Source of the DNA: Myxococcales bacterium
GTDB taxonomy: Bacteria; Myxococcota; Myxococcia; Myxococcales; UBA5297
Direction of reading: 5' to 3'
Length of the DNA: 64,000 bases
NCBI GenBank assembly: GCA_037442205.1
Contig: JBBIQS010000033.1
Span: forward strand, 1-64,000
The first letter of the stretch is position 1; each line of letters starts with the position of its first letter. Of the stretch, positions 46,353 through 64,000 are shown piece by piece. The position numbers were made by a program, and so were the translations under genes. The notes below the pieces were generated by a model. The model was not told the origin of the DNA and made no database searches. It saw only the letters and a program-made list of their open reading frames with translations.

Positions 46353-47873
46353 ATGAACTTCGGATCGGCTCGCGCCGCGGCGCTGGCGGTGGCGCTCTCG
46401 CCGCTGCTGGGGTGCCAGCAGCAGGGCAGCCTGGTGCAGGCCCTCGACTCGGCGGTGGTGGGCACCGCCCACGCCGAGACCCCGTCGACGACCCCGCCGC
46501 CGAACGGATTGTGGCGCGAAGGCGGGCAGAACCTGGGCGACTTCCGGGCCCCGGTGTCGCTGGCGCCGCTGGTCAAGGCGATCAAGCCGGGGGTGGTGAA
46601 CATCAACACCACCAGCATCGCCAAGCGGCAGCAGATGCAGGTGCCCCCGGGCTTCGAGGACTTCTTCCACCAGTTCCACGGAGGCCGCGGCGGCGACGCC
46701 GAGCCCGAGCGCCGGCAGAGCCTGGGCTCGGGGTTCATCATCAATCCCGCCGGCTACGTGATCACCAACAACCACGTGATCGACGGGGCCTCGGAGATCA
46801 AGGTCACCCTCGACGACGGCCGGGAGTTCACCGCCAAGGTGGTCGGCCGCGATCCGAAGACCGACGTGGCGCTGCTCAAGCTGCAGCCCAACGGCCAGGA
46901 GGTCAAAGACCTGCCGACCGTGCCGCTGGGTGACTCGGAGGCGCTGCAGGTGGGCGACTACGTGCTCGCCGCCGGCAACCCCTTCGGCCTGGACCACTCG
47001 GTGAGCCAGGGGATCGTCAGCGCCAAGGAGCGGGTGATTGGCGCCGGGCCCTACGACGAGTTCATCCAGACCGACGCCGCCATCAACCCCGGCAATTCCG
47101 GCGGGCCGCTGTTCAACATGAAGGGCGAGGTGGTGGGGGTGAACACCGCCATCGTGGCCCAGGGCCAGGGGATCGGCTTCGCAGTGCCGATCAACATGGC
47201 CAAGGAGTTGCTGCCGCAGCTCTTGAACAGCGGCAAAGTGGTGCGCGGCTGGCTGGGCGTGTCGATCCAGGAAGTGACCCCGGACATCGCCAAGAGCCTG
47301 GGGCTGGGCAAGGCCGGAGGCGCGTTGGTGGGCGAGGTGATGAAGCGCGGGCCGGCGGCCGCCTCCGGGCTCGAGGCGGGCGACGTGGTGACCGCGGTCA
47401 ACGGCCGCAAGGTCGAGACCTACAACCAGCTGTCGCGCTTCGTGGCCGGGCTGGCCCCTGGGGCTAAGGCCCAGCTGACGGTGATGCGCGGTGGCAAGGA
47501 GCGTGCGATCCCGGTCAAGGTCGGCGAGCGCCCCGAGGACGAGCGCACCGCCTGGCAGCAGGGCGGCGATGAGGAGAGCGCCCAGCCTTCGGCGGTCGAC
47601 AAGCTGGGGATCTCGGTGGCTGCACTGGGCACGCAGCGGGCGCGTCAGGTGGGCGTCGAGGAGGGCGTGCAGATCAGCGCCGTCGAGCCCGACTCCGCGG
47701 CCGCACGGGCCGGCGCCCGACCCGGCGACGTCATCGTCGAGATGCAGCGCCAGCCGGTGCGCAACGTCCGCGACTACGCCCAGATCGCCCATACCCTCAA
47801 GGTCGGCGATACCGCGCTGATCCGCGTGCGGCGCGAGGGCGCGGCCATCTTCATCGCCGTGCCGCTGCGGTAG
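46353..47873 (+). CDS. HtrA/DegP-family periplasmic serine protease with two PDZ domains
   Basis: Signal or lipoprotein leader. Catalytic HVID, D(V)ALLK, GNSGGPL. Two PDZ-like segments (LGVSIQEV..., LGISVAAL...). Confidence 0.88.
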   Translation: MNFGSARAAALAVALSPLLGCQQQGSLVQALDSAVVGTAHAETPSTTPPPNGLWREGGQNLGDFRAPVSLAPLVKAIKPGVVNINTTSIAKRQQMQVPPGFEDFFHQFHGGRGGDAEPERRQSLGSGFIINPAGYVITNNHVIDGASEIKVTLDDGREFTAKVVGRDPKTDVALLKLQPNGQEVKDLPTVPLGDSEALQVGDYVLAAGNPFGLDHSVSQGIVSAKERVIGAGPYDEFIQTDAAINPGNSGGPLFNMKGEVVGVNTAIVAQGQGIGFAVPINMAKELLPQLLNSGKVVRGWLGVSIQEVTPDIAKSLGLGKAGGALVGEVMKRGPAAASGLEAGDVVTAVNGRKVETYNQLSRFVAGLAPGAKAQLTVMRGGKERAIPVKVGERPEDERTAWQQGGDEESAQPSAVDKLGISVAALGTQRARQVGVEEGVQISAVEPDSAAARAGARPGDVIVEMQRQPVRNVRDYAQIAHTLKVGDTALIRVRREGAAIFIAVPLR

Positions 47874-47954
47874 TCCGGCGCCTCATCGACGCGCTCCCTC
47901 CACGGCCAAATCGGCCGCGGGGCGGAGCGCGTCTTTGTGTTTGAAGTTACTGGT

Positions 47955-47982
47955 GGAATTCCTCGCGCAGAGTTTTCGAAGA
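47955..47982 (+). promoter_or_regulatory. Candidate ECF-type promoter (GGAAT-N17-CGAAGA) upstream of the ECF sigma gene
   Basis: AT-rich patch in otherwise GC-rich intergenic DNA, with a GGAAT -35-like element and a CGAAG -10-like element. Speculative. Confidence 0.2.
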
Positions 47983-48040
47983 TCGAGCACTCAACGCCAT
48001 GGCCGCTCGGGTGTACCTAGTGTGACGCCCGAGGTGCCGG

Positions 48041-48655
48041 TTGCGCGAATCCATTCCCAAGCTGCGAGTTCTGCCGGGCGATGCCGAGTCCGCGAATGCC
48101 CTCGACCGGGGCAGCGACGAAGAGCTGATGCTGCTGAGCAGCGCCGGCCGCCGTGACGCCTTCGCCGAGCTCGCCGGCCGTCACTTGCCGCGGCTGACCA
48201 GCTTCTGTGCCAAGTACGTCGGCGATCGCGGCGCCGGTGAGGAGCTCGCGCAGGAGACCATGGTCCAGGTCTGGCTCTCGAGCGCCGACTACCGGCCCGG
48301 CGCCTCGACGGCGGTCTTCCTCTACACCATCGCCCGCAACCGCTGCCGCAACCACCGCCGCGACACGAGTCGGCGCGAGCGGCTCCTCGAGGCCCGGCCC
48401 ACTTCGGAGCAGGAGCCGGCCCAGCTCGATGCGCTGCTCGAATCGGAGCGGCAGCGGCGGGTGTTCGAAGCGGTGGCGCGCCTGCCCGAGAAGTTGCGCG
48501 AGGCGGTGCTGCTGCGCTTCGACCGCGGGCTCGACTACGCCCAGATCGCGGAGATCGTCGGGCGAGGGGAGGCGACCATGCGGTCGCGCGTCTTCCTGGC
48601 CCTCAAGAGCCTTCGCCGCGAGCTCGGCGAGGCGCTGCCCGAGGTGGAGCGATGA
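48041..48655 (+). CDS. ECF (group IV) RNA polymerase sigma factor
   Basis: Region 2 ELAQETMVQVWLS...FLYTIARNRCRNHRR. Region 4 LPEKLREAVLLRFDRGLDYAQIAEIVGRGEATMRSRV. Confidence 0.85.
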   Translation: MRESIPKLRVLPGDAESANALDRGSDEELMLLSSAGRRDAFAELAGRHLPRLTSFCAKYVGDRGAGEELAQETMVQVWLSSADYRPGASTAVFLYTIARNRCRNHRRDTSRRERLLEARPTSEQEPAQLDALLESERQRRVFEAVARLPEKLREAVLLRFDRGLDYAQIAEIVGRGEATMRSRVFLALKSLRRELGEALPEVER

Positions 48656-49446
48656 ACGGCTGCCCCAATCCCTCGGAGTGGCTGCTGCTGGTCGACGGCC
48701 AGGTGTCGGAGGAGCGCGGGCGCCAGCTGCGCGGGCACGTCGAGGCGTGTCGCCAGTGCCGGTCGCGGCTGGCCGCGGAAGAGGAGCTGCTGCGCCGCCT
48801 GGCCCAACCGATTGCCGAGCCGTCGCCGGTTTCGGTGGAGCGGCTGATGGCGCGGCTCGATCAGGCGCCGCCGGTTCGGAGAAGCCCGCTCGGTTGGGTT
48901 GGCGCCGGGGCCTTGGCCGCGGCGCTGGCGACGGGCGTGCTGCTTGCCCCGCGCGGCGCGCCCGAGCTGCAGGCGCGAGGCGGCGAGCCCAGCGACGCGA
49001 TCGGCAAGCGGGCCGGCGTTCAGCTCCGGCGGGTGGACGATCCTTCGCGAGCGATCGAGCCGGGTGCGGCGGTGCCTGCCGAGGCGGCCTTCTTCGCCAG
49101 CTACCGCAACCTCGAGGCAGTGGAGCTCTACCTCGCCGCCTTCGGACTGGACGCATCGGGAGAGATCCACTGGCTCTATCCCGGGTTCGTCGATCCCGAC
49201 AGCGATCCGTTCTCGGTGCCGCTGTCGCCCGCGGAGGTGCCCAGCGCCCTGGGCGAGTCGGTGCGGCTCGAGTCGCCAGCGCCGGGGCCGATGAAGGTGC
49301 TGCTGCTGGTCACGCGGGCGCCGCTGCGCGTATCGCAGATCGAGTCCCTGCCTTCTACGCGGCTCACTGTCGGTTCCCTGCAAGCTCGCTTCCCCGACGC
49401 CTCTGTCGAGGAGCTTCCCCTCATCCTGACTCGGAGTTCCCCATGA
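48652..49446 (+). CDS. Zinc-binding (ZAS-type) anti-sigma factor with one TM and a periplasmic domain
   Basis: ATG overlaps the sigma-gene stop (ATGA). HVEACRQCRSRL is the H-x3-C-x2-C motif. TM LGWVGAGALAAALATGVLLA. About 150-aa C-terminal extracytoplasmic region. Confidence 0.65.
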   Translation: MNGCPNPSEWLLLVDGQVSEERGRQLRGHVEACRQCRSRLAAEEELLRRLAQPIAEPSPVSVERLMARLDQAPPVRRSPLGWVGAGALAAALATGVLLAPRGAPELQARGGEPSDAIGKRAGVQLRRVDDPSRAIEPGAAVPAEAAFFASYRNLEAVELYLAAFGLDASGEIHWLYPGFVDPDSDPFSVPLSPAEVPSALGESVRLESPAPGPMKVLLLVTRAPLRVSQIESLPSTRLTVGSLQARFPDASVEELPLILTRSSP

Positions 49447-51281
49447 CCTCGCTCGTGTCGCTCGCGCTCGGCCTGCTGGTCGCAGCAACGCCAGGCAAAG
49501 CGGATCCTCTGGTCCTGGCGCTCGTGGTCGGCAGCAACCAAGGCGCCGGACTCTCCCAGCCGCCGCTGCACTACGCCGACGACGACGCCGCCCGCTACCT
49601 TGAGACCTTCGAGGCCCTCTACGGGCCGGAGAGCGCGACTCTGCTCACCGCTTTCGACCGCGACAGCGCTCGGCTCTTCGGCCCTCTGGTCGACAAGGCG
49701 CGGGCTCCGACCAAGGCCAACGTGCTCGTCGCCGCGCAGGAGGTCGCTGCCAAGGCCAGAGCAGCCGAGGAGCGCGGGCGAGAGGTAGAGCTCTACTTCG
49801 TCTTCGCCGGCCACGGCGACGTCGATCGCGGCAGCGGCTTCCTGAGCCTGGCGGACGGCCCCTTCACCTCCGAGGACCTCGAGGGGCTGCTCAGGGCTTT
49901 TCCGGCGAAGCGCAAGCACGTCATCCTCGACAGCTGCAACTCGTTCTTCGTGATCAGCCCGCGCAGGCCGGGCGGGCGGCGGTTCGCCACTCCCTCCGAT
50001 GCCGCGCAGGCGCTCGCCCGCCGGATGCCGGAGGTCGGGGTCTTCCTCTCCACCAGCGCCGAGGCCGAGGTCTACGAGTGGTCCGAGCTCCAGTCGGGGA
50101 TCTTCAGCCACGCGGTGCGTTCGGGAATGTTGGGGGCGGCCGACGCCGATGGCGACGGCCAGGTCAGCTACGAGGAGCTGGCAGCATTCGTTGAGACCGC
50201 CGCGGCGCCGGTCAAGAACCCGCTGATGAGGCCCAAGGTCTACGCCCGCGGGCCCGGCGGCGATGACCGAAGCGCCATCTCCGCGCCGGCTCGCTCGGCC
50301 GCGCCGGCGCTGACCATCCACGAGCCCGGGCCGGTGCGCCTGACGGTGCGCGACGAGAGCGAGCTGCGCTGGCTGGACGTCCACGCCGAGCCGGGCGCCG
50401 AGGTGATCCTGCGGCTGCCGGCGGGCCTGGAGAAGGGGATGGTGATCGAGCGCGGGACTGCTTTGGGGAAGGAGCGCCTGGTGGCAGCCGCGGTGCCGGC
50501 CAGGCTGGAGCTGGGCGCCATGAGCTGGGCACCTCAGGAGGCCTCTTCGCGCTCGGCGCAGGAGCAGCTGCAGACCCTGTTCTCGCTGCCCTTCGGTGCC
50601 CGCGCGCTGGAGTCCTGGCGCGCCGAGCGTGCGGCGCAGCCGGAGCCGGTCTACGGGATCACGCGCGAGGACGGCGAGAGGATGGACCGTCTGCTGGGTC
50701 AGCTGGCGGACACCGACCGTTCGCGCCGGCTCAGCGCCGGAATCCTCTCGGCGGCTGGCGGCTTCGGGCTGGGGGTGCTGGGCGCGCTGTCGCTGCGCGA
50801 CGGCCACCGGGAGGGCTACGTCTTCCTGGGCACCGGTGCCGTGATGCTGGGTGTCTCGGCGCTCGCCTTCCTGCCGAGCAGCGGGGAGAAGGCCTGGGCT
50901 GCATTTCGGGAGGAGATGGCGGCCGGGACTGACCCGGTTCAGGTGGTCGCCAGGACCGAAGCGCGCCTCCAGGAGATGTTGGGCGGCGAGCGACTCGCCC
51001 GCCGGCTCAACGCAGTCACCGCCGGCCTGATGCTCGCCAGCGGCATCGGGCTGGTCGCGGTCAGTGAGTCCTCGTCGCGGCCGGATCGACCGACCGCCAC
51101 CGGCTTTGGAGTGGCCCTGGCGGCGCTTGGAGCCTCGATCGGCCTATCGAGCCTGCTGATGGAAACGCCGGTGGAGCGGGTGATCGGCATCTGGAACCAG
51201 GATCCTGGCATCGCCAAGATGCGCCTGGGCCTGGCGCCGGTGAACGGCGGCGGTCTGCTCTCTCTCAGCGGCGAGTTCTAG
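49443..51281 (+). CDS. Exported caspase-like (peptidase C14/metacaspase-type) protein with C-terminal TM hairpins
   Basis: ATG overlaps the anti-sigma stop (ATGA). Signal peptide MTSLVSLALGLLVAATPGKA. His-Gly dyad context YFVFAGHGD and Cys context HVILDSCNSFF, matching the caspase/metacaspase HG...D[SA]C[HN]S pattern. Four hydrophobic helices in the last roughly 170 aa. Confidence 0.7.
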   Translation: MTSLVSLALGLLVAATPGKADPLVLALVVGSNQGAGLSQPPLHYADDDAARYLETFEALYGPESATLLTAFDRDSARLFGPLVDKARAPTKANVLVAAQEVAAKARAAEERGREVELYFVFAGHGDVDRGSGFLSLADGPFTSEDLEGLLRAFPAKRKHVILDSCNSFFVISPRRPGGRRFATPSDAAQALARRMPEVGVFLSTSAEAEVYEWSELQSGIFSHAVRSGMLGAADADGDGQVSYEELAAFVETAAAPVKNPLMRPKVYARGPGGDDRSAISAPARSAAPALTIHEPGPVRLTVRDESELRWLDVHAEPGAEVILRLPAGLEKGMVIERGTALGKERLVAAAVPARLELGAMSWAPQEASSRSAQEQLQTLFSLPFGARALESWRAERAAQPEPVYGITREDGERMDRLLGQLADTDRSRRLSAGILSAAGGFGLGVLGALSLRDGHREGYVFLGTGAVMLGVSALAFLPSSGEKAWAAFREEMAAGTDPVQVVARTEARLQEMLGGERLARRLNAVTAGLMLASGIGLVAVSESSSRPDRPTATGFGVALAALGASIGLSSLLMETPVERVIGIWNQDPGIAKMRLGLAPVNGGGLLSLSGEF

Positions 51282-51285
51282 GGGA

Positions 51286-54200
51286 TCAGAGCGCGAGCGC
51301 CACCGTGGGGCCGGCGAACAAGTAGCCGCGCTGGGCGCCGGCCGGGGCGGTGAAGAACCAGGTTCCTGGAACCTCGAGCCCGAGCGAGAGCCAGCGGGTC
51401 AGCGAAACCTGCACCCCGGCGCTCCCTCCGATGCCAGCGGCGACGGATCGGGCAAAGAGGACCGGGACCTCCAGGGCCAGCACCGGCCGCACCTTCCCCT
51501 GGGCGTTGAAGGGAACCCACTCCAGCCGCGCCAGCAGGCCCATCTGCCCGGTGACCAGAACGCCGGCGCTGGCGGTCAGCGACTGCAACAGCCGGTAGCC
51601 CACGGTCGCGGCGACCGCGCCGCCGCGCTCCTGCGCCAGCATCACTTCGAGCCTCGCCTGGATCACCGTCCGCCCCGCCGACGCCTTCGTTCGCGCCACC
51701 GGCGAGGGACCGAACAGGCCAACTGCCGCCTCCGCCGACATGTCCAGCAGCTCGTCCTCCGCCGATCCGTTGGACTGGGCGCTGTACCGCTTTTCCACCT
51801 GGGCCTTGTGGGCGTTGAAGAGCTGGGCGCTGAAGACCAGGGTGTCGCCCAGTCGGCCCAGGCTGGCGCTGAGCAGCTGGTCGACGCCCAGCGCGCCGCC
51901 GATCTCCGCCAGGCAGCCGCTGTCGGAGCAGCCGATGAGCTGGCGCTGCCGCTCGTAGGAGAGAACGGCCTGCAGCTCCTTGGTGGAGACCACCCGCACC
52001 GTCGGCCGCTCCTGGATGCTGGCTAGAAACGAGGCGCTGACGATCTCCGCGACTCCCGATTCCACCCCGAGGCCGGCCTGCATTCCCAGGAAGGCCACCT
52101 TCACCGCCTTGGGCTTGGCCGGCGATGCGACCGGCGCAGCGGCGGCCTCGGCAGCCGGCGCGCTCGGAGCTGGCGGAGGAGCCGGCTGGGCGCTGGCGGC
52201 TGGCGGAGGTATCGGAGAAGCCGGGGGCGAGGTCGAGGCGTCCGCGGCAGGGGCGGTCGCGGCCGCCGGCGGCGTAGGAGGCTCGGGCGCCTTCTTCGCC
52301 GCCGCAGCCGGCGGCTTGGGCTTGGCCGGTTTCGGCTTTTCCGCAGAGAACGCCATGGCCGGGATTAGCAGCGCGACAGCGAGCGCCGCGGCCGAGCGCC
52401 GCCGACGCAGTGCCACCAGGGCTCCGAGCGCTGCCAACAGCGGTCCGCCGCCGCCCGCGTTGCAGCCGCAGCGAGGGGGCGCGAAGAGGTTGGGGTCGGC
52501 CGCCGCCGGCCCTCCGACCTGGCAGGCGCCCTTCTCACAGTAGCCGCTGGCGCAGTCCTCGGCCGCGGCGCAGCCCTGTCCGGCGGCTCGCTTGCAGGTG
52601 CCCTGGCCGTCGCAGGAGCCGTCGCAACCCCTCCCGGCGAAGGTCTCGTTCTGCGGCACCGCGGTGCAGACCCCCAGGTGGCCCGGCAGCCCGCAGGCCA
52701 TGCAGCTGCCGGCGCAGTCCGAGTCGCAGCACACGCCATCGACGCAGCGACCGTCGGCGCACTCGGTGCCTCCAGTGCAGGGCACCCCGTTGCGCGCCTT
52801 GCACTTGCCGGCCCCGTCGCACGCCAGCGCCAGGCCGCCACAGTCGCGATCCTGCTCGCCGGCCGGGACGAAGGCGCACTGGCCCTCCTTGCCCGGCAGA
52901 TTGCAGGAGCGGCACTGGCCGGCGCACGAGTTCTCGCAGCAGACGTTCCCCACGCACTGGCCGGTGACGCACTGGGACCCGTCTCCGCACGGCTGCCCCT
53001 GCCGCCACAGGCAGGCCCCGGCTCCGTCGCAGGCCTGGGCGCCGACGCAGGCCTTGCCGTCGCCCTGGCCGCGCGGGACGCTGCTGCAGATGCCCTGGCG
53101 CTCGGGGACGTTGCAGGCCTGGCAGGCCCCGGCGCAGGCGCTGTCGCAGCAGAAGCCATCGATACAGTGTCCCGACAGGCATTCCGCCGCCGACTGGCAG
53201 ATCTGCCCGGACGGCTTCATGGCGCAGCCGCCGCTGCCGTCGCAGGCGTTGGGGGCGGCGCAGGTGTCGGGGTCGAGCTGCCCCTTGGGCACCGGCGAGC
53301 AGCGGCCGATCGATCCGGGCACGTTGCAGGCCTGGCAGGTGCCGGTGCAGGCGCCCTCGCAGCAGACCCCGTCCACGCACTGGCCGCTGGCGCACTTCGA
53401 TTTGTCCGAGCAGGGCTGGCCAAGGCTGGCGCAGGCGCCCTCGCAGCACTTGCCGTCGACGCACGATCCGCTCAGGCACTCGCTCGGTCCGGCGCAGCTC
53501 TGTCCGGCAACCTTGAGGCAGGCTCCGGCGCCGTCGCAGACCGCCGGGGCCAGGCAGGTGTCGAGATCGGCCGCTCCCCTCGGCACCGGGGTGCAGCTGC
53601 CGAGCTTGTTCGGGACGTTGCACGCCTGGCAGATCCCGGTGCAGGCGCTGTCGCAGCACTGGCCGTCGACGCAGAAGCCGCTCAGGCAGTCGGCGGGCGA
53701 GGCGCAGGCCTGGGCCGCCACCAGCTTGCAGACCCCGGCGCCGTCGCAGGCCCGCGGCGCGGCGCAGGCCGGCGCGCTCAGCCCGGCCGGGACCGGGAGG
53801 CACTTGCCCAGGTTGCCGGCCAGGCTGCAGCTCTCGCAGGGGCCGGCGCAGGCCGCGTCGCAGCACAGCCCGCCGGCGCAGAAGCCGGAGAGGCACTCGC
53901 CATTGGCGGCGCAGGCCTGGGCGGCGGTGAGCTTGCAACTCCCGCTCCCGTCGCAGGACTTGGGGGCGGCGCAGGTGTCGGGGTCCGGGGCGCCGGCGGC
54001 GACCGGGGTGCAGGTCCCGCGGCGCCCGACCAGATTGCACGCCTGGCAGGTGCCGCCGCAGGCGCCGTCGCAGCAGAGCCCGTCGACGCAGAAGCCGCTG
54101 GCGCACTGGCTGGCGCCGGTGCAGGCGCTGCCGGCCACCAGCAGGCATTTGCCCAGCCCGTCGCAGGCGTTGGGGGCGGCACAGCTGGCGGTGGTCTGTC

Positions 54201-57200
54201 CGGCGGCGACGTCGGCGCAGCTCCCCAGCTTCCCCGGCAGGTTGCAGGCCTGGCAGGGGCCGCAGCTACCCCCGCAGCAGACCCCGTCGGCGCAGCGCCC
54301 CGAGGCGCAGTCGGCCCCGGTCGCACAGGCCTGGCCGTTGGCCAGCTTGCAGGAGCCGAAGCCGTCGCAGGACTGCGTCGCCAGGCAGCCGCGCGCGGAG
54401 AACTGCGGCGCCGGCCCGCAGGCCCCCTGGTGCTGCGGGTTGTTGCAGGCCAGGCAGGCTCCGGTGCAGGGCAGGTCGCAGCAGAAGCCGTCGGCGCAGA
54501 AGCCGGTCTGGCACTCCGAGGCCGCGGCGCAGGGCTGGCCCGAGAGCTTCTTGCAGGCGCCGGCGCCGTCGCAGGCCGCGGTGCCGCTGCAGCCGGAGCG
54601 CGCGGGCTGGCCGGCCGGGGTCGGGACGCACATTCCAGGGACGGGGGCCACGTTGCAGGACTGGCAGGTCGCGGCGCAGGCGCTCTGGCAGCAGACCCCG
54701 TCCACGCAGAAGCCGCTCAGGCAGTCCGAGCCGGCGGCGCAGGGCTGCCCGGAGCGCAGCCGGCACAGGCCGGTGCCGTCGCAGGCGCGCGACAGGGTGC
54801 AGGTGCGGCCGTCCTCGGCGCCGGCGGTGACGCTCAGGCAGATCCCGGGGGTCGGGGCGAGGTTGCAGGCCTGGCAGGTCCCGCAGACCGAGGCGCAGCA
54901 GACCCCGTTGACGCAGTGGCCGGAGGTGCACTGGACGTCGGCAGTGCAGGGACCGCCGACGACCCCCTTCCCGATCTGCATTGGGGCGGCGACGCTCGGG
55001 ATTCCGGCGGTGGTGACGAAGAGCAGGTAGTGGCCGATTCCGAGTCCGGCGGGGAGCTTGGCGGTGAGGGTGGAGTCGTCGAACGAGCTGGCCGGAAAGC
55101 GGTGCAGCCCGGAGCCGTCGGCGGGCATCAGGGTGAGCACCGGTAGGTCGGCGACGGCGCCGGACGAGGTGCCGCCGCTGGCGCCGGCGGGGCCGCGGAA
55201 GCCGGAGCCGGTGAGGGCGACGGTGTCGCCGGGAGCCGCCCAGGCCGGAGCGGTGGCGATGGTCGGGCGAGCCGGAGCGAAGACGTCCAGCCCGGGATCC
55301 GAGAGCAGCGCCTCAGTGGTGGTCGCGCCGTTGGTGGTGCCGACCAGGAGGGCAGCGGCGCCCGGCATCAGGAGCGCTGCCTGGAGCAGGTGGGCGTTCT
55401 CCATCGGGATCGTCGGGCGCCAGGTCTCGGTCTGCGGATCGTAGAACTCCGCCGAGGCATTGGACATGGTCGAAGCGTTGGTCGGCGGGAAGTAGATCGG
55501 CGGTGCGGCGCCTGCCACCAGCACCTTGCCGGTGGGGAGCAGGACGGCGGAGTGGCCTACGCGGGGAAAGGTCATCGGGGCGGTGAACGCCGAGGCTCCC
55601 TTGGCGGGGTCGAACAGCTCGGCCGAGGCCAGCGCGGCGCCGCTGGCGTCGACGCCACCGGCGACGAGCACCTTCCCCGACGGCAGCAGGGTCAGGGTCG
55701 GGTCGCCGGTGATGCGCAGGGTGCGCAAGTATCCGGCGATGGACCAGCTGTTGGTGGTCGGGTCGTAGATCCGGAACGAGCCGTCGGTGCGGTGCAGGCC
55801 CAGCACCTTGCCGTCGGCGAGCCGTAGCATCTGGCTGACGCAGGTCAGGGTCGCCGAGGTGGTGGCGGTGAAGGACCCGGTGGAAGGATCGAAGATATCG
55901 TGAGTGTAGTCGCAGCTGGTGGCGCCGCCGGCGATCAACACCCTGCCGTCGGCCAGCGCGACGGCAGAATGGCGGAATCGGGCGACCGCCATCGGGCCGG
56001 TGGTCGGCGTCCAGGAGTTGGCGGTCGGGTCGTAGATTTCAGCGGTGCTGACTTGCTGGAAGTACGAGAGGCCGCCGCCGGTCACCAGCACCTTGCCGGT
56101 GGGCAGCAGCGTGGCGGTGAACGGGGACGGGCGCGGATCTCGATCTAGCGGATCGACGCGCACGGTCCCCATCGAGGCCGCCCGGGTGAAGGTGCCGGTC
56201 GCCGGGTCGAAGATCTCCGCCGAGCTGATGGTCCCCGACCCCAGGATCAGCGCCTTCCCCCCAGGGAGCGGAGTGGCGGCAAGCGGCCTGAGCAGCTGGG
56301 TCATCGGTGCCGGCCGACGCCAGCCTCCGACCTGCTCGCGGTAGAGCTCGGCGGCGGCGGTGGCGGGGGCGGTCCCGGGGTTGCCGCCCGCCATCAGGAT
56401 GCTCCCGTCGTGCAGCACCGCCGCCGAAAAGGTCATCCGAGCCAGCGCGAGGCCGGGCGAGGGGAGCCAGCGGTCGACCCCGGGATCGTAGAGCTCGACG
56501 CTGGCAGTCATCGGGCCGGTGAGGCCGGGCTGGCCGCCGGCGACCGCCACCCTCCCGCTGGGCAGCGTGAGTGCGACGTGCTTGTAGCGGGCCTGGGCCA
56601 GCCCCGGCGCCGCGGTCCAGGACGAGGTCTTCGGGTCGTAGATCTCCGCAGTGGCCACGCGGTTGCCGGCGGCGTCCTCGCCGCCCGCCACCAGGACCCT
56701 CCCGTCCAGGAGCAGGCTCGCGGTGTGCGAGGCGCGCCCGGCCGCCAGCGGGCCGGCGAGCGCCCAGGCGCCAGCGGGGCCGGCGGCCGGATCGAAGACC
56801 TCGCAGCTCGCCAGGACCGTGCCCGCCCGGCCGCCGGCGAGCAGGACCTTGCCCGTGGAGAGCCGGGTGAGCGTGCCGCCGATGCGGGGAGCATTCATCG
56901 GCGGCGTGGACACCCAGGTTCCGGTGTTCGGGTCGAGCAGCGACGCCCCCGAGGCGGTCACCGCCAGGATGCGCCCGTCGGCGAGCAGCGCCGTGGTCCG
57001 ATAGGCGGCCAGAATGGTGGGTCCCAGCGCGGACCACAGGTTGGTTGCCGGGTCGTAGATCTCGGGCTGGATCGACTGCGTGGAATAGGGCGGGAAGGGG
57101 ATCACTTCGGCCGGAATCTTCACCACCCGGCCATCGGCGAGCAGGTGTGCGGAGTGCCCCACCTCCGGATACACCATCGAGCCCGCCGGCGCCCAGGAGC

Positions 57201-58956
57201 CGGTGGCCGGGTCCAGCAGCTCGGCGGTGGCGGTGACGGTAGTGCCGTCAGTGTATCCGCCGGCGACCAGCACCTTGCCGGAGGCGAGCACGGTCATCGA
57301 GGCGCCCTTCCTGGGAATGGCCATCGAGTTGACCGGGGTAACGGCGGGGTCGACCGTGTACCTCTCGGACGACGACAGGGCGGCGCCGGCGGCCTTGCCT
57401 CCGAGCACCAGCACGTCGCCGCTGGCGAGCACCGCCGCCGAGGCCTGCTGGCGCGCTGCCTTGAGCGGCACCGATTGCCAGAACCCCTTGGAGAGCCCGT
57501 CGTAGAGCTCGGTGCTGGCCAGGGACGCAGCGCCGTCGCTGCCGCCCAGCAGCAGCGCTTTGCCGGAGGGGAGCAGCACCGACGCATGGGCGCGGCGGCC
57601 GGTCACCAGGCCGGAGGCCGTGGCAGCCCAGGTGCCCTTGGCCTCGTCAAAGAGCAGGGCGCTGGCCAGGACGTCGGTCCCGGTGCTGGTGCCGCCGGCG
57701 ACCAGCACCCCGCCGGTGCGCAGGCGGGTGGCGCTGTGCTCGGAGCGGGGGGAGGGGAGGTTGGCCGCGGTCCAGCTGCCGGTGGCCGGGTCGTAGAGGT
57801 CGGCGTTGGCCACCGGGCCGGAGGCAATCGTTCCGCCGACGACCAGCACCCGCCCGTCGCCGAGCCGGGCCGCTGCCGCGCGCGCGCGCGGGGCGATGCT
57901 CCCGGCGGCCGAGAAGCTGCGCTTGGTGGGATCGTAGAGCTCGGCGAGACCGGCGGCGTCGCCTCCGGCAATCAGCACCCTGCCGTTGGCCAGCAGGGTG
58001 GCGGTGGCGAAGCTGCGCGGCGCGGCCATGGGAGCGGTGGCGGTCCAGGCGCGCAGCACCGGGTCGAAGGTCTCGCAGCTGGCGTTGCCACCGCCGCAGA
58101 CGAGCAAGGTTCCGTTGCCCAGCAGCGTGGCGGTCGCGCCCAGGTGGCCGACGGCCATCGGGCTCGGTTCGGCGGTCCAGGTTCCGGCGAGTGGCTCGTA
58201 CCAGTCGCAGCGGGCCAGCGCGGTGGTCCCGTCGGCGGTGCCGCCGCAGGCGAGCAGCCGCCCGTCGCTCATCAGCGCCAGGGCCTGGTCGTAGCGCGCC
58301 TGGCCGAAAGTGCCCACTGTCGTCTCCCAGGAGGGATCGAGCAGGATTGGCGCCTCCAGTCCCGAGGTGTCGAGGGCGATGGTGAGCTGGTCTCCTTCGA
58401 TCGAGAGGCTCGCCTCCGTCCGGCGGCCCCTGGCGTCGAGTGCCCAGGGCGGCGCCAGGCGCAGGCGCGCCATCCCCGAGTCGTCCACCACCTCGCCGCT
58501 GGGGAGCAGCCGGCCCCCATCGACAATCACCTGGTAGTCGAAGCGGCGCGGCGCACTCGGCCCCCGCAGGAACAGCAGTTCCTCGTAGCGCCCGGGGCTC
58601 GCCACCTGGACGACGTCGGTGTCCGAATAGGCGTCGCGGAAGACCGTGGCCGCGCCGTCGCTGGCTGCGGCGGCGACGCTCGCTCCCAGCGCGCGAACCT
58701 GAAGCTCGAGGCCGGCCGCCGACAGCCGGAGCGGGGCCTCGGCAGAGGCGGGCGGAGCCCCCACCACGTCGGCAGAGCGCCCGGTGGGCAGGCGTTCGTC
58801 CGCTCGGCTTTGCAGGCGGTCGGCGGCGGCGGGGAAGCGCTCTCGCAGCTGCTGGAGGAAGTGCTCGGCGCGAGTGCGGTCAGGGTCTCGGCAGGCGCTC
58901 CCGGCCAGGGTCAGCAGCGCGGCGAGGGCAATCGCCGCGCGAGCATGGCGTGGCAT
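51286..58956 (-). CDS. Giant (2556 aa) secreted protein: Kelch-type beta-propeller repeats, about 11 Cys-rich tandem modules, an internal MYXO-CTERM-like segment, and a 368-aa C-terminal lipoprotein/beta-rich domain
   Basis: Signal peptide. Recurring LL.DGRVLV.GG...LYDP....W Kelch motifs over about 1100 aa. Roughly 70-aa modules C.SG.C.DG.CC...C.G.CQ.CN.PG..G.C.PV. The segment RCGCNAGGGGPLLAALGALVALRRRRS is followed in frame, with no stop, by AAALAVALLIPAMAFSAEKP and a further domain. Confidence 0.75.
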   Translation of the reverse strand: MPRHARAAIALAALLTLAGSACRDPDRTRAEHFLQQLRERFPAAADRLQSRADERLPTGRSADVVGAPPASAEAPLRLSAAGLELQVRALGASVAAAASDGAATVFRDAYSDTDVVQVASPGRYEELLFLRGPSAPRRFDYQVIVDGGRLLPSGEVVDDSGMARLRLAPPWALDARGRRTEASLSIEGDQLTIALDTSGLEAPILLDPSWETTVGTFGQARYDQALALMSDGRLLACGGTADGTTALARCDWYEPLAGTWTAEPSPMAVGHLGATATLLGNGTLLVCGGGNASCETFDPVLRAWTATAPMAAPRSFATATLLANGRVLIAGGDAAGLAELYDPTKRSFSAAGSIAPRARAAAARLGDGRVLVVGGTIASGPVANADLYDPATGSWTAANLPSPRSEHSATRLRTGGVLVAGGTSTGTDVLASALLFDEAKGTWAATASGLVTGRRAHASVLLPSGKALLLGGSDGAASLASTELYDGLSKGFWQSVPLKAARQQASAAVLASGDVLVLGGKAAGAALSSSERYTVDPAVTPVNSMAIPRKGASMTVLASGKVLVAGGYTDGTTVTATAELLDPATGSWAPAGSMVYPEVGHSAHLLADGRVVKIPAEVIPFPPYSTQSIQPEIYDPATNLWSALGPTILAAYRTTALLADGRILAVTASGASLLDPNTGTWVSTPPMNAPRIGGTLTRLSTGKVLLAGGRAGTVLASCEVFDPAAGPAGAWALAGPLAAGRASHTASLLLDGRVLVAGGEDAAGNRVATAEIYDPKTSSWTAAPGLAQARYKHVALTLPSGRVAVAGGQPGLTGPMTASVELYDPGVDRWLPSPGLALARMTFSAAVLHDGSILMAGGNPGTAPATAAAELYREQVGGWRRPAPMTQLLRPLAATPLPGGKALILGSGTISSAEIFDPATGTFTRAASMGTVRVDPLDRDPRPSPFTATLLPTGKVLVTGGGLSYFQQVSTAEIYDPTANSWTPTTGPMAVARFRHSAVALADGRVLIAGGATSCDYTHDIFDPSTGSFTATTSATLTCVSQMLRLADGKVLGLHRTDGSFRIYDPTTNSWSIAGYLRTLRITGDPTLTLLPSGKVLVAGGVDASGAALASAELFDPAKGASAFTAPMTFPRVGHSAVLLPTGKVLVAGAAPPIYFPPTNASTMSNASAEFYDPQTETWRPTIPMENAHLLQAALLMPGAAALLVGTTNGATTTEALLSDPGLDVFAPARPTIATAPAWAAPGDTVALTGSGFRGPAGASGGTSSGAVADLPVLTLMPADGSGLHRFPASSFDDSTLTAKLPAGLGIGHYLLFVTTAGIPSVAAPMQIGKGVVGGPCTADVQCTSGHCVNGVCCASVCGTCQACNLAPTPGICLSVTAGAEDGRTCTLSRACDGTGLCRLRSGQPCAAGSDCLSGFCVDGVCCQSACAATCQSCNVAPVPGMCVPTPAGQPARSGCSGTAACDGAGACKKLSGQPCAAASECQTGFCADGFCCDLPCTGACLACNNPQHQGACGPAPQFSARGCLATQSCDGFGSCKLANGQACATGADCASGRCADGVCCGGSCGPCQACNLPGKLGSCADVAAGQTTASCAAPNACDGLGKCLLVAGSACTGASQCASGFCVDGLCCDGACGGTCQACNLVGRRGTCTPVAAGAPDPDTCAAPKSCDGSGSCKLTAAQACAANGECLSGFCAGGLCCDAACAGPCESCSLAGNLGKCLPVPAGLSAPACAAPRACDGAGVCKLVAAQACASPADCLSGFCVDGQCCDSACTGICQACNVPNKLGSCTPVPRGAADLDTCLAPAVCDGAGACLKVAGQSCAGPSECLSGSCVDGKCCEGACASLGQPCSDKSKCASGQCVDGVCCEGACTGTCQACNVPGSIGRCSPVPKGQLDPDTCAAPNACDGSGGCAMKPSGQICQSAAECLSGHCIDGFCCDSACAGACQACNVPERQGICSSVPRGQGDGKACVGAQACDGAGACLWRQGQPCGDGSQCVTGQCVGNVCCENSCAGQCRSCNLPGKEGQCAFVPAGEQDRDCGGLALACDGAGKCKARNGVPCTGGTECADGRCVDGVCCDSDCAGSCMACGLPGHLGVCTAVPQNETFAGRGCDGSCDGQGTCKRAAGQGCAAAEDCASGYCEKGACQVGGPAAADPNLFAPPRCGCNAGGGGPLLAALGALVALRRRRSAAALAVALLIPAMAFSAEKPKPAKPKPPAAAAKKAPEPPTPPAAATAPAADASTSPPASPIPPPAASAQPAPPPAPSAPAAEAAAAPVASPAKPKAVKVAFLGMQAGLGVESGVAEIVSASFLASIQERPTVRVVSTKELQAVLSYERQRQLIGCSDSGCLAEIGGALGVDQLLSASLGRLGDTLVFSAQLFNAHKAQVEKRYSAQSNGSAEDELLDMSAEAAVGLFGPSPVARTKASAGRTVIQARLEVMLAQERGGAVAATVGYRLLQSLTASAGVLVTGQMGLLARLEWVPFNAQGKVRPVLALEVPVLFARSVAAGIGGSAGVQVSLTRWLSLGLEVPGTWFFTAPAGAQRGYLFAGPTVALAL
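52470..54980. repeat. Coding tandem repeats (about 11 units of roughly 210 nt) encoding the Cys-rich modules of the giant protein
   Basis: Periodicity is evident in the translated sequence. It generates long spurious plus-strand ORFs (52592..55030, 52678..55146) through shared wobble positions. Confidence 0.5.
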
Positions 58957-59188
58957 GGCTGCTCCAATGGATGGATGGCGGGCAAGAAAGCGACGACATC
59001 CTACCTTCCCCAGCAGGCGGAGTGGGGTTCACTTGTTTGCCTTGTTTGGAATGCAAAACAGCGGCGGCTCCTCGGGCGCGACGGGGCCGCGGCCAACTGA
59101 GGAGCCGCCGAAAGCGGCAGCGAGAGCGGCACTCCCGTCCGGCGTCAGGGCGGCCGGCTGCGAAATGGAGCGCGCCGCGTCGCGGGAG

Positions 59189-62093: not shown

Positions 62094-62166
<73 letters not shown>

Positions 62167-62296
62167 CAAGAAAATCCGCTGTGCTTACGGGCTGTTTCCC
62201 TCGGGAGGCGGCCCGTTTTCGTTTGCGGGAAGCCCTGACACTCGAAAACGGGACTTCCTTAGAGGCCGGACTCGCGGCGCGCAAAGATGCTCCGTT

Positions 62297-62312
62297 TGCA
62301 GTTCATGAACTG
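62297..62312. promoter_or_regulatory. Perfect 16-bp palindrome GCAGTTCATGAACTGC, operator-like
   Basis: Exact dyad symmetry. Followed by GCGAACAG, which also forms the arm of the second palindrome. Confidence 0.35.
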
Positions 62313-62442
62313 CGAACAGGCTCGATTCGTGCCCCCTATGAAGCGCAAGCCTCGAGTCGTGCTCGTGCTCATACCGCACCTTCAACTCTCTCGGGTGCGG
62401 CACCTGTCGCGGCCAGGAAGATACCACTCATCGCGGCGTGCC

Positions 62443-62468
62443 TGTTCGCTGTTTGCAAACAGCGAACA
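62443..62468. promoter_or_regulatory. Perfect 26-bp palindrome TGTTCGCTGTTTGCAAACAGCGAACA ending 1 nt before the ATG of the wHTH gene
   Basis: Exact dyad (11-bp arms, 4-nt centre TGCA) overlapping the ribosome-binding region of the gene at 62470. Confidence 0.4.
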
Positions 62469-62469
62469 A

Positions 62470-63015
62470 ATGGCTAGATTCTGGGACGTGATCCTCAAGC
62501 CCCAAGACGTGCTGGTCTTGCTGAAGGTGTGCCTCCATCCCGAAGTCCGATGGACTGTTCGCGCCATGGGCGCGGAAGTCGGCCTAAGTGGCTCTGAGGC
62601 TTCTGCCGCGACGAAGCGATTGGTGCAGGCTCGTCTGGTGGTGTCGGGCGCGGGGGGGCGGGCGATTCCGGTTCGGGAGAGCGCGGTCGAGTTCTTGGTC
62701 CACGGGGTTCGATACATCTTCCCGGCTGTTCGCGGGCCAGTCACTCGGGGAATCCCAACCGCCCATGCGGCCCCCGTTCTCATCGGGAATTTCGCCAAGC
62801 TCGAGGGGCTTCCGCCTGTCTGGCCTCACCCCGAGGGAATCGCGCGCGGCGAGTCCTTCAAGCCGCTCTACTCCTCTGCGCCGAAGGCGGCGTCCCGCGA
62901 TACAGCGATGTATGCGGCACTGGCCCTCATCGACGCGATTCGCGGAGGGAATGCTCGGGAGCGCGCGCTGGCGACGAAGCTGCTCAGCGAAATGATCATG
63001 AAGGCGGGAGAGTGA
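62470..63015 (+). CDS. Winged-helix-like small protein, a putative transcriptional regulator or antitoxin partner of the downstream nucleotidyltransferase
   Basis: Start chosen at M62 of ORF 62287.. because the upstream in-frame part contains the palindromes and biased codons. Stop overlaps the next gene start (ATGA). Confidence 0.4.
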   Translation: MARFWDVILKPQDVLVLLKVCLHPEVRWTVRAMGAEVGLSGSEASAATKRLVQARLVVSGAGGRAIPVRESAVEFLVHGVRYIFPAVRGPVTRGIPTAHAAPVLIGNFAKLEGLPPVWPHPEGIARGESFKPLYSSAPKAASRDTAMYAALALIDAIRGGNARERALATKLLSEMIMKAGE

Positions 63016-63704
63016 GTCAGAACCTCGAAATGGTAGCGCTCGTGGCCGAGCGGCTGGGCGACCTTCGAGGAGAGGTTGTCTTCCTCGGCGGCGCGGTGAC
63101 GGCTCTGCTTGTCACCGACCCGGCAGCCGCCGAGGTCAGGCCCACGACCGACGTGGATGTGATCGTGGACCTCGCTACTCATACCGACTACGCCCGACTT
63201 TCCGAGCGTCTACGCAAGCTGGGATTCCGGGAGGACACCTCCGAGGGCGCTCCGGCCTGCCGATGGCTTGTGGCAGGCGTGAAGGTGGACGTGATGCCCA
63301 CGAACGAAGCGGTGCTCGGCTTCGGCAATCGCTGGTACGGCCCGGCCATCGAGCACGCCGAGGCGCGCACCGTTGGGGAACTGGCGGTGCGGGTCGTATC
63401 TGCGCCTTACTTCCTCGGGACCAAGCTCGAAGCTTTCGATGGACGCGGCGAGGGCGACTATCGAGCCAGCCATGACCTTGAAGATGTCATCGCAGTCGTC
63501 GACGGAAGGTCGGAGCTGGTGGCGGATGTTACAGCGGCGCCGGAGGCCCTTCGCAACTATCTCAAACGGCGGATAGGGCAGCTTCTCGACGCCCCCAGGT
63601 TCATCGAGGCGCTCCCCGGCCATCTGCCTGGCGACGCTGCTAGCCAGGGCCGTGCGCCGCTTGTGCTGGCGAGGCTCAAGGCACTCGCCGGAAGAGCAGG
63701 ATGA
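63012..63704 (+). CDS. Nucleotidyltransferase-fold protein (AbiEii/MNT-like)
   Basis: VVFLGGAVTALLVT...RPTTDVDVIV fits the GS/GG-x9-13-DxD nucleotidyltransferase motif. Confidence 0.55.
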   Translation: MSQNLEMVALVAERLGDLRGEVVFLGGAVTALLVTDPAAAEVRPTTDVDVIVDLATHTDYARLSERLRKLGFREDTSEGAPACRWLVAGVKVDVMPTNEAVLGFGNRWYGPAIEHAEARTVGELAVRVVSAPYFLGTKLEAFDGRGEGDYRASHDLEDVIAVVDGRSELVADVTAAPEALRNYLKRRIGQLLDAPRFIEALPGHLPGDAASQGRAPLVLARLKALAGRAG

Positions 63705-63754
63705 GTGCGAACAGTGGGATGCCGTCCGGGCCGTCGCCCGACCTATCTTCAGGT

Positions 63755-64000
63755 CATGGCCGTCCCAATCACCCGCTTCCCCCTCCGCTTCGACGCCTGG
63801 TACCGCGCCCTCTCCTCAACGCTGCTCCTGCCGCCCTCGAAGGCGTACGTCGAAGTGCAGGATGATCGAATCGCCGTCCGCATGGCATGGGCTTTCCGGG
63901 CCGAGTTCCCGAGAGCCGCGGTGCGCGCCGCATCCGAGCTGCACAAGCACCCGCTAAGCCGAGGAGTCCACGGGTGGGGAGGCCGCTGGCTGGTCAATGG
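63755..64000 (+). CDS. Possible partial CDS running off the window end, hypothetical
   Basis: ATG at 63755, open to the window end. G/C-ending codons and balanced composition (MAVPITRFPLRFDAWYRALSS...). Absent from the ORF track only because no stop is reached. Confidence 0.25.

Follow-up and report, generated by a model that had tools for sequence, protein, structure and literature searches.

A putative AbiE/MenAT-type gene pair with a conserved putative operator design in a small foreign islet at a tRNA-Thr gene of a Myxococcales bacterium

The gene pair and its family

The first 64,000 nucleotides of contig JBBIQS010000033.1 from a Myxococcales bacterium (assembly GCA_037442205.1), referred to as the window in the following, contain near their right end two coupled genes, here called A and B, that lie directly 3' of a tRNA-Thr gene and are preceded by two perfect palindromes. 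The pair is a toxin-antitoxin or abortive-infection candidate from a known, large, and catalogued family, and its putative antitoxin is not an AbiEi homologue. The features on which this view is based are the two genes and two putative operators, O1 and O2:

62470-63015, + strand: gene A (open reading frame ORF1), 181 amino acids, putative antitoxin and autorepressor; alternative start GTG 62488
63012-63704, + strand: gene B (ORF2), 230 amino acids, DUF1814/AbiEii/MenT-type nucleotidyltransferase and putative toxin; GTG start
62294-62317, no strand: putative operator O1, GTTTgcaGTTCatGAACtgcGAAC, matching the family operator pattern (see below) with zero mismatches
62444-62467, no strand: putative operator O2, GTTCgctGTTTgcAAACagcGAAC, matching the same pattern with zero mismatches; core of a 26-bp palindrome

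The product of gene A consists of an N-terminal winged helix (approximately residues 9-57) and a conserved alpha/beta C-terminal domain (AlphaFold model, pLDDT 95). Conservation of the C-terminal domain equals or exceeds that of the winged helix, as would be expected for a part that handles a conserved partner. The only Pfam match is a sub-threshold one to MarR_2. The PADLOC model PDC-M21A matches with an E-value of 1.1e-43 (147 bits) and aligns from residue 27 only, leaving uncovered the N-terminal part of the winged helix-turn-helix (wHTH) domain, which diverges from the family. More than 850 relatives of A occur in a 90%-clustered database, and the family comprises 2401 clusters at 50% identity (E <= 1e-10). 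These relatives are about 167-185 amino acids long, which supports a start of gene A at or near position 62470. A preliminary description of the locus had regarded the first product as a wHTH protein of an AbiE-like pair. The winged helix is present, but no homology to AbiEi is detectable: none of 51 A-family members matches the AbiEi Pfam families at E <= 0.1, a PDB search with the family profile retrieves neither AbiEi nor Rv2827c nor any MenA protein, and fold and profile searches of the PDB with A yielded generic wHTH proteins only, with no AbiEi or Rv2827c among the matches listed.

Gene B overlaps gene A by four nucleotides, which read GTGA (GTG start at 63012, TGA stop at 63013-63015) and not ATGA as first reported; the same overlap exists in the sister genome introduced below. 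The protein matches the PADLOC model PDC-M21B (4.4e-67, 224 bits), and since the two genes match both PDC-M21 models, are adjacent, and have the expected order, the pair is a member of this family. Pfam AbiEii (PF08843) is matched with 23.4 bits at a cutoff of 22.5 and is also found in 38 of 52 B-family members. In the PDB, the AlphaFold model of B (pLDDT 96) most resembles MenT1 (8an5 and 8an4; E 6e-7; TM-scores 0.53/0.65), the fungal nucleotidyltransferase-like structure 5uvd, and MenT3, followed by ANT(2'')-Ia, TM1012, and LnuA. Single-sequence searches of the PDB with A and B gave marginal matches only, and NCBIfam contains no match for either protein. A profile of 52 B relatives matches MenT1 (5e-4) and aligns R43-P-T45-T-D47-V-D49 with the PRFTRDVD of this toxin. 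Residues G26, G27, R43, T45, D47, D49, K138, D155, E157, and D158 are invariant among the 52 relatives, and with them the DUF1814 motifs GG, R-x-T-x-D-x-D, K138, and D155-x-E-D. The GG-x-DVD signature and the AbiEii-type identity proposed earlier for the second product thus agree with the Pfam, PADLOC, and MenT1 fold and profile matches, and the similarities in sequence and modelled structure support B as an AbiEii/MenT-type nucleotidyltransferase. The invariant T45 aligns with the phospho-acceptor threonine of MenT1 (T39) in the R-x-[ST]-x-D-x-D loop, and by analogy might also be phosphorylated.

An MNT/HEPN-like nature had been suggested as well. HEPN-MNT (minimal nucleotidyltransferase) modules also combine a polymerase-beta-superfamily nucleotidyltransferase with a second gene, but the pair in the window has no HEPN partner, B is not of the minimal NTP_transf_2 type, and neither A nor B matches NTP_transf_2 or HEPN. 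On the profile evidence for AbiEii and MenT1, we rejected for B both this identity and that of an antibiotic-resistance nucleotidyltransferase. As a separate observation, some A relatives (P0217, P0250, P0357, and P0304) are fused to a C-terminal minimal MNT-type nucleotidyltransferase (NTP_transf_2/Polbeta), an architecture different from HEPN-MNT modules, and others (P0260, P0270, P0271, P0282, and P0307) form the N-terminus of proteins of 1000-1468 amino acids that lack a Pfam domain.

AbiE systems are bicistronic, with the antitoxin gene first and a DUF1814 nucleotidyltransferase as toxin; their antitoxin AbiEi combines a wHTH at the N-terminus with a C-terminal domain for antitoxicity and uses inverted repeats to repress its own promoter (PMC7319586, PMC3985639). 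The pair in the window resembles AbiE of Streptococcus agalactiae and of lactococcal plasmids in gene order, in the DUF1814 affiliation of the second product, and in the two-domain organization of the first. It shares with AbiE the toxin family and a coupled upstream gene but not the COG5340/AbiEi antitoxin, because protein A shows no sequence or fold match to AbiEi beyond a generic wHTH. The AbiE operator is a single pair of long inverted repeats, whereas the putative operator of the window pair is a four-tetramer array, and compared with AbiEii, B is a distant and short member. With the MenAT1 and MenAT3 systems of Mycobacterium tuberculosis the likeness is on the toxin side, MenT1 being the best structural and profile match of B, although identity is only about 20% and TM-scores range from 0.5 to 0.65. 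Their antitoxins differ from A, as MenA1 is a short helical peptide and MenA3 an AbiEi homologue. The antitoxin partners of MenT toxins come from unrelated families (PMC11375011), and one more such family is therefore plausible.

Putative operators and the start region

The 26-bp palindrome at 62443-62468, which had been located exactly by the preliminary description, is the longest in the window, where first-order Markov simulations predict 0.28 palindromes of at least 20 bp per 64 kb. Its core, O2, ends two nucleotides ahead of the ATG at 62470. O1 contains a 16-bp palindrome, GCAGTTCATGAACTGC, which is perfect as described but occupies 62298-62313, shifted rightward by one base from the 62297-62312 given before. 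The two palindromes do share a GCGAACA half-site; they are 150 bp apart and not nested as had been stated. Further features of this region are:

62318-62369, + strand: 5' end of gene A, probable second copy in decayed form, collinear with O1 at a 150-bp offset
62452-62480, + strand: candidate core promoter read from the sequence, with -35 TTTGCA at 62452-62457, a 17-nucleotide spacer, and -10 TAGATT at 62475-62480
62556-62562 and 62727-62733 (TGTTCGC), 63707-63713 (GCGAACA), no strand: isolated half-site heptamers from a sequence count

By themselves, such palindromes might be RNA hairpins, terminators, or chance features instead of protein-binding operators. The 16-mer alone is unremarkable, as four other palindromes of at least 16 bp occur in the window with 3.6 expected; in the transcript, the 26-mer would fold into a strong 5'-terminal hairpin; and a third dyad, treated below, overlaps a terminator. 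This interpretation can nevertheless hardly be correct in view of the loci of other organisms. In a sample of 80 metagenomic and two viral-contig loci having a relative of A, the strongest dyad in the 130 nucleotides upstream of the LKPQD motif of A has a mean score of 8.8, compared with 5.4 in coding controls, and is nearly always situated 45-15 nucleotides upstream of the motif. The common architecture is RTTY-N3-RTTY-N2-RAAY-N3-RAAY (consensus TATTCGCTATTCGCGAATAGCGAATA), that is, four tetramers, two direct facing two inverted, in a 7-bp register around a 2-bp centre. Allowing for at most one mismatch, this pattern is found 30-50 nucleotides upstream of the LKPQD leucine codon in approximately 63 of 83 loci and three times in the other 382 kb of the loci. 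Although derived from other organisms, it has exactly two matches in the 64-kb window, O1 and O2, with 0.00 expected, and O2 fits the family norm of -50 to -30 nucleotides from the leucine codon. Across about 60 loci the tetramers are conserved at their fixed register while the N3 and N2 spacers vary freely, as is expected for a protein-binding site and not for an RNA stem. A putative operator design is thus conserved throughout the PDC-M21 family.

The operator also covaries with the protein that presumably reads it. The recognition helix of the A family has the sequence S-x-S-E-V-H-A-A. Residue 45 of the protein, within this helix, is a His at 80 of 84 loci, and ATTC tetramers accompany this His in 61 loci. 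The A protein of the window has a serine instead (Ser45), and G is the first base in each of the eight tetramers of O1 and O2; a relative on an Agrobacterium plasmid has Ala45 and uses GTCC four times in the same register. Operators with four G-first tetramers occur in none of the 61 His45 loci that have a recognisable operator (nominal Fisher p ~5e-4, with lineages that are not independent). That A itself reads the operator is best supported by this covariation, and both palindromes are best read as putative operators for protein A. The earlier suggestion that a single DNA-binding protein, the wHTH product, recognises both sites and presumably autoregulates the pair is supported by the family-wide pattern together with the covariation between helix and operator.

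The existence of two sites in the window may go back to a duplication. O1 and the following 50 nucleotides align with O2 and the first codons of gene A at a constant offset of 150 bp (repeat families D1 and D5), and the putative copy reads …EQ-ARF…MKRKPRVVLVL where gene A has MARFWDVILKPQDVLVLL / …EQMARFWDVILKPQDVLVLL. With a local alignment score of 20, the similarity exceeds that of shuffled sequences (8.8 +/- 1.4), although one shuffle reached 19. O1 hence looks like part of a decayed copy of the operator and the first ~17 codons of gene A, with moderate statistical support. We considered O1 as a mere duplication scar, but this is weakened by four other loci where a second operator is located 64-103 bp upstream, flanking an AT-rich promoter region, without any coding relic. 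O1 may therefore still function. Two sets of repeats are also used by Rv2827c (PMC7319586). The heptamer GCGAACA/TGTTCGC occurs 15 times in the window and six of these copies are within 62312-63713; the three isolated ones, of which two are inside gene A and one is three nucleotides past the stop codon of gene B, compare with ~0.18 expected from the remainder of the window.

The promoter of the pair is proposed by eye and by analogy with other loci of the family, because a sigma-70 scan of the region from 61.8 to 64 kb detected no promoter on the + strand; the candidate matches 8 of 12 consensus positions and falls below the threshold of the scanning tool. In many relatives, the operator directly adjoins the -35 element (TTGCnn), its last repeat contains or just precedes a TAnnnT -10 element, and the start codon follows 6-7 nucleotides past the -10 element, which implies leaderless messages. 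Other relatives have TTGACA 23 nucleotides upstream, with the first heptamer doubling as -10 element. The ATG at 62470 lacks a Shine-Dalgarno sequence. Initiation at the alternative GTG at 62488, seven nucleotides past TAGATT, would give M-I-L-K-P-Q-D, the commonest N-terminus of the family, and would mean a leaderless mRNA. From its position, the putative operator covers the promoter or the start region under either reading of the start. The frame of gene A is also open for 61 codons upstream of ATG 62470, starting from ATG 62287 (62287-62469). The resulting ORF of 242 amino acids was rejected as spurious, a possible annotation error, as the lengths of the homologues argue against it.

Limits of the islet and the tRNA-Thr site

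On its left side the pair is separated by a spacer from a tRNA gene, which adjoins a divergent gene of the glutamate-dehydrogenase (GDH) family, and on its right side it is followed by a third reading frame:

62094-62167, + strand: tRNA-Thr (anticodon CGT), found by ARAGORN and with 70.8 bits by the Rfam tRNA model
62187-62225, + strand: intrinsic terminator of the tRNA, a 13-bp GC-rich hairpin (62187-62216) and then TTTTCGTTT
62212-62221 and 62243-62252, no strand: 10-bp inverted repeat (dyad 1), CCCGTTTTCG / CGAAAACGGG, read from the sequence
63756-64000, + strand: ORF3, 129 amino acids, running off the window and complete in contig L001 (positions 1645-2034 of that contig)

The drop in GC content after the tRNA that had been noticed before is real, although modest overall. 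The whole window has 70.9% GC, compared with 58.9% in the 302-bp spacer (62168-62469), 64.8% in gene A, and 65.8% in gene B. GC content at third codon positions (GC3) amounts to 0.75 in gene A and 0.735 in gene B, against 0.90 +/- 0.06 in 38 host ORFs. The patch 3' of tRNA-Thr is compositionally foreign.

The hairpin at 62187-62216 is the sole terminator-like site of the region and dominates the minimum free energy (MFE) fold of 62168-62262 (-39.7 kcal/mol, z = -3.6). The preliminary description had listed dyad 1 with the two palindromes. Its coordinates are exact, but an operator-type role does not fit: the first arm is made up of the 3' side of the terminator stem and the U-tract, the pairing of its arms is not used in the MFE structure, and sequence comparison revealed no counterpart at the sister-genome locus. 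Dyad 1 is probably part of the transcription stop region of the tRNA and not an operator. In an Rfam scan, the tRNA alone exceeded the threshold. The other match, 'Plastid-ycf2 5UTR' on the minus strand exactly over the tRNA (62094-62167), is spurious, with 34 bits at a gathering score of 65.7; it is an artefact caused by tRNA-like sequence within that model.

It had been proposed that the patch is the left edge of a larger integrated element whose remainder, with an integrase, an att repeat, and more cargo, lies beyond base 64000. The position next to a tRNA and the lower GC content would agree with such an element, and in four of 67 related genomes the 3' half of the tRNA is duplicated downstream, once as far as 9.5 kb off. 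What follows the window is known from the Logan contig L001, which shares 1889 identical bases with the window and continues for another 5 kb. It contains the complete ORF3, an acyl-CoA dehydrogenase with host-like GC3 (0.94), LigB, and the universal GTPase HflX. No integrase exists in the window or in this extension, and a search of both for a second copy of the tRNA-Thr 3' end retrieved chance matches of 9-14 nucleotides only, one of which (13 of 14 positions) lies within gene B. For the first 5 kb the proposal is thus largely refuted, and we regard a larger element as very unlikely. The islet appears essentially complete inside the window, with ~1.6 kb of foreign DNA, or up to 2.0 kb if ORF3 is included. 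The GC3 of ORF3 (0.81) is between those of host and islet. ORF3 has at least 651 homologues with ~65% identity in Myxococcota, Burkholderiales, and Acidobacteriota, and no Pfam model. These homologues have no constant neighbours, so that the right border of the islet stays within 63705-64178.

The neighbourhood of GDH and tRNA-Thr(CGT) is kept in most of 80 related genomes, where gene content past the tRNA varies. The host is an uncultured Myxococcota member, and its best relatives share 71-74% GDH identity. Beside GDH-tRNA-Thr, the A-B pair is absent from 79 of the 80 genomes; the pair is thus not a conserved component of this locus. The exception is the sister genome, the metagenome-assembled genome MFD01476.bin.1.33 (L002/L010), whose A and B are 62% and 81% identical to those of the window. 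Here, tRNA-Thr is followed by an integrase remnant, an excisionase-type helix-turn-helix fragment, a SEC-C protein, A, B, and a copy of the tRNA 3' half. The remnant corresponds to the final ~40 codons of a tyrosine integrase gene (Phage_integrase positions 141-168 of 172, E 3.5e-4). The tRNA copy measures from 44 bp at 95% to 51 bp at 90% identity, depending on the alignment, and a terminator comes after it. The sister pair is thus inside a decayed, att-flanked integrative element of 2.3 kb at tRNA-Thr. Direct repeats of the tRNA 3' half at 0.7, 2.0, and 9.5 kb from the tRNA in three further genomes (L024, L056, and L041), the last being a 46-bp exact repeat in Archangium gephyra, identify tRNA-Thr(CGT) as a recurrent integration site in Myxococcota. 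The att-flanked islet of 2 kb in L056 offers no informative comparable cargo. Together with GC3, these repeats support the earlier view of a foreign patch at a tRNA integration site.

The DNA just past the tRNA of the window has no homology to either att flank of the sister beyond the tRNA itself. Window and sister share ~76-77% nucleotide identity in GDH and in the pair alike; the pair may have been inherited jointly or acquired separately. The copy in the window is best seen as a further-eroded version of the sister-type islet. Like islands formed by tRNA-targeting tyrosine integrases, the window pair is situated directly 3' of a tRNA, deviates in codon usage, and is missing from nearly all related genomes, but with ~1.6 kb of foreign DNA and neither an integrase nor the direct repeat (attR) it is a relic and not a mobile element.

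Several other observations were made in these genomes. Both the sister Myxococcota genome and a chromosome of Candidatus Thiodiazotropha encode a SEC-C-motif protein directly upstream of the pair (L002 9095-9403, L003 657-965, and L166 6626-7324), which may be coincidence or a loose association. Just past the sister islet, L002 11458-15188 contains four copies of TGTCACGCGC(c/a)(g/t)GCTTCG ahead of genes for a ParB-HTH protein, a Mu-type transposase, and an IstB-like ATPase; this segment looks like a transposon end with multiple transposase-binding sites. The window has ~11 kb extra (47836-59164) in the region FtsH-GrpE-HtrA...DUF6066-GDH that is otherwise syntenic with the sister. The additional DNA includes an ORF of 1024 amino acids without a Pfam match (48207-51281, + strand) and a gene for a Kelch-repeat protein of 2556 amino acids (51286-58956, - strand).

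Distribution and possible function of the family

More than 1800 relatives of B are found in the 90%-clustered database, and the order A-then-B is observed in nearly all of the 83 loci that extend far enough. Relatives of B occur on 118 plasmids of Rhizobium, Bradyrhizobium, Agrobacterium, Pseudomonas, Acinetobacter, and Deinococcus, and NCBI often names them 'AbiEii/AbiGii toxin family' and relatives of A 'hypothetical'. One chromosomal copy shares an island with genes for a type I restriction specificity subunit, AAA ATPases, a PLD nuclease, and an integrase; of the others, one adjoins an IS21-like element, one has a reverse transcriptase and an MNT gene as neighbours, and one stands alone among housekeeping genes. 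In about ten metagenomic loci gene B is frameshifted or internally deleted (L135, L141, L147, L148, L159, and L163) or interrupted by insertions (L101, L102, L120, and L160) while A is intact. The interrupting genes code for a DUF433+PIN pair, a ParB-like protein, and a Fic-like protein. Decay of B but not of A fits a toxin, although it could also be explained by assembly errors. On plasmid pAt2 of Agrobacterium tumefaciens (L171, NZ_CP048524.1; 2420-5389), gene B is followed with a 4-nucleotide overlap by a PP2C phosphatase gene and this by a gene for a Lit-family protease ('phage exclusion protein Lit family'), with a VapC toxin nearby. The operator of this plasmid keeps the four-tetramer register and uses GTCC/GGAC.

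These contexts bear on whether the pair is a toxin-antitoxin module at all. It might instead combine a self-repressed regulator with a nucleotidyltransferase that does a non-toxic job, for instance by nucleotidylating small molecules or antibiotics as ANT(2'') or Lnu do, or be a domesticated and harmless remnant. By TM-score, ANT(2'')-Ia, LnuA, and TM1012 match B about as well as MenT does, A is no homologue of AbiEi, the toxicity of B is putative, and one relative stands alone among housekeeping genes. However, sequence profiles point to AbiEii and MenT1 and not to resistance enzymes, the DUF1814 motifs including the phospho-acceptor threonine are invariant, and the family is spread patchily over plasmids, islands, and sites beside insertion sequence (IS) elements. 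The repeated decay of B beside an intact A and the clade that links the pair to a PP2C phosphatase, a Lit-like protease, and VapC also disagree with a non-toxic function, which we therefore consider improbable.

Instead, the segment from 62168 to approximately 63750 is likely to be a stripped-down, horizontally acquired islet at tRNA-Thr(CGT) whose sole intact cargo is an AbiE/MenAT-type module (PDC-M21), in which A would repress its own synthesis through the operators and neutralise B. Several points weigh against this. The window genome itself lacks attR and integrase, and integration is deduced for this reason from the sister genome. The covariation involves two non-His lineages, and two loci with Phe45 fit poorly. 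PADLOC PDC entries are putative, unvalidated defence candidates obtained from guilt-by-embedding (PMC12988326), and PDC-M21 is mentioned in no paper that we found. The AbiEii score of B barely passes the cutoff, and its fold likeness to MenT1 is moderate and comparable to that for ANT(2'')-Ia. Protein A lacks detectable homology to AbiEi/COG5340 and to any MenA antitoxin, and its C-terminal domain has no match in the PDB or Pfam, so that an antitoxin role is proposed for A from the order of the genes, their coupling, and analogy. No convincing sigma-70 promoter is present on the + strand, and the start codon is ambiguous. A role in phage defence would find no direct sign in the distribution either, with no relative in 50,697 phage genomes and only two in viral contigs.

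A mechanism can be outlined by analogy. MenT1 and MenT3 add pyrimidines to the 3' ends of tRNA, and structurally unrelated MenA antitoxins induce auto-phosphorylation of MenT1 at T39 and of MenT3 at S78 (PMC11375011). AbiEi is likewise reported to induce auto-phosphorylation of AbiEii, with reversal by a Ser/Thr phosphatase (2026 preprint 10.64898/2026.01.19.700257). If B resembles MenT1, MenT3, and AbiEii in its activity, it would, once released, extend tRNA 3' ends by nucleotides and halt translation. The winged helix of A would bind the four-repeat operator, which is present twice in this genome and overlaps the operon promoter and start, and would thereby repress its own operon. The conserved C-terminal domain of A would neutralise B, possibly by inducing auto-phosphorylation at T45. 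The PP2C phosphatase in the pAt2 operon fits a phospho-control of the putative toxin. A more far-reaching idea, which we put forward as speculative, is that the C-terminal domain of A represents a fourth and very widespread antitoxin class for DUF1814/MenT-type toxins (~2400 clusters) that would act as a type VII antitoxin via T45 auto-phosphorylation. Operator specificity would then be switched by one helix residue (His45 for ATTC; Ser45/Ala45 for GTTY/GTCC), and the operon PP2C of the rhizobial clade would re-arm the toxin.

For the genome studied here the locus carries little weight, being a small islet relic that holds a toxin-antitoxin-type module next to a tRNA hot spot. The gain is for the family: the uncharacterised PDC-M21 group obtains a defined operator, a recognition-helix residue predicted to determine specificity, a toxin threonine predicted to be a phospho-acceptor, and a natural variant operon with its own PP2C phosphatase. 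The model of antitoxin-induced auto-phosphorylation of DUF1814 toxins would thus become testable on an antitoxin family that is unrelated to AbiEi and MenA.

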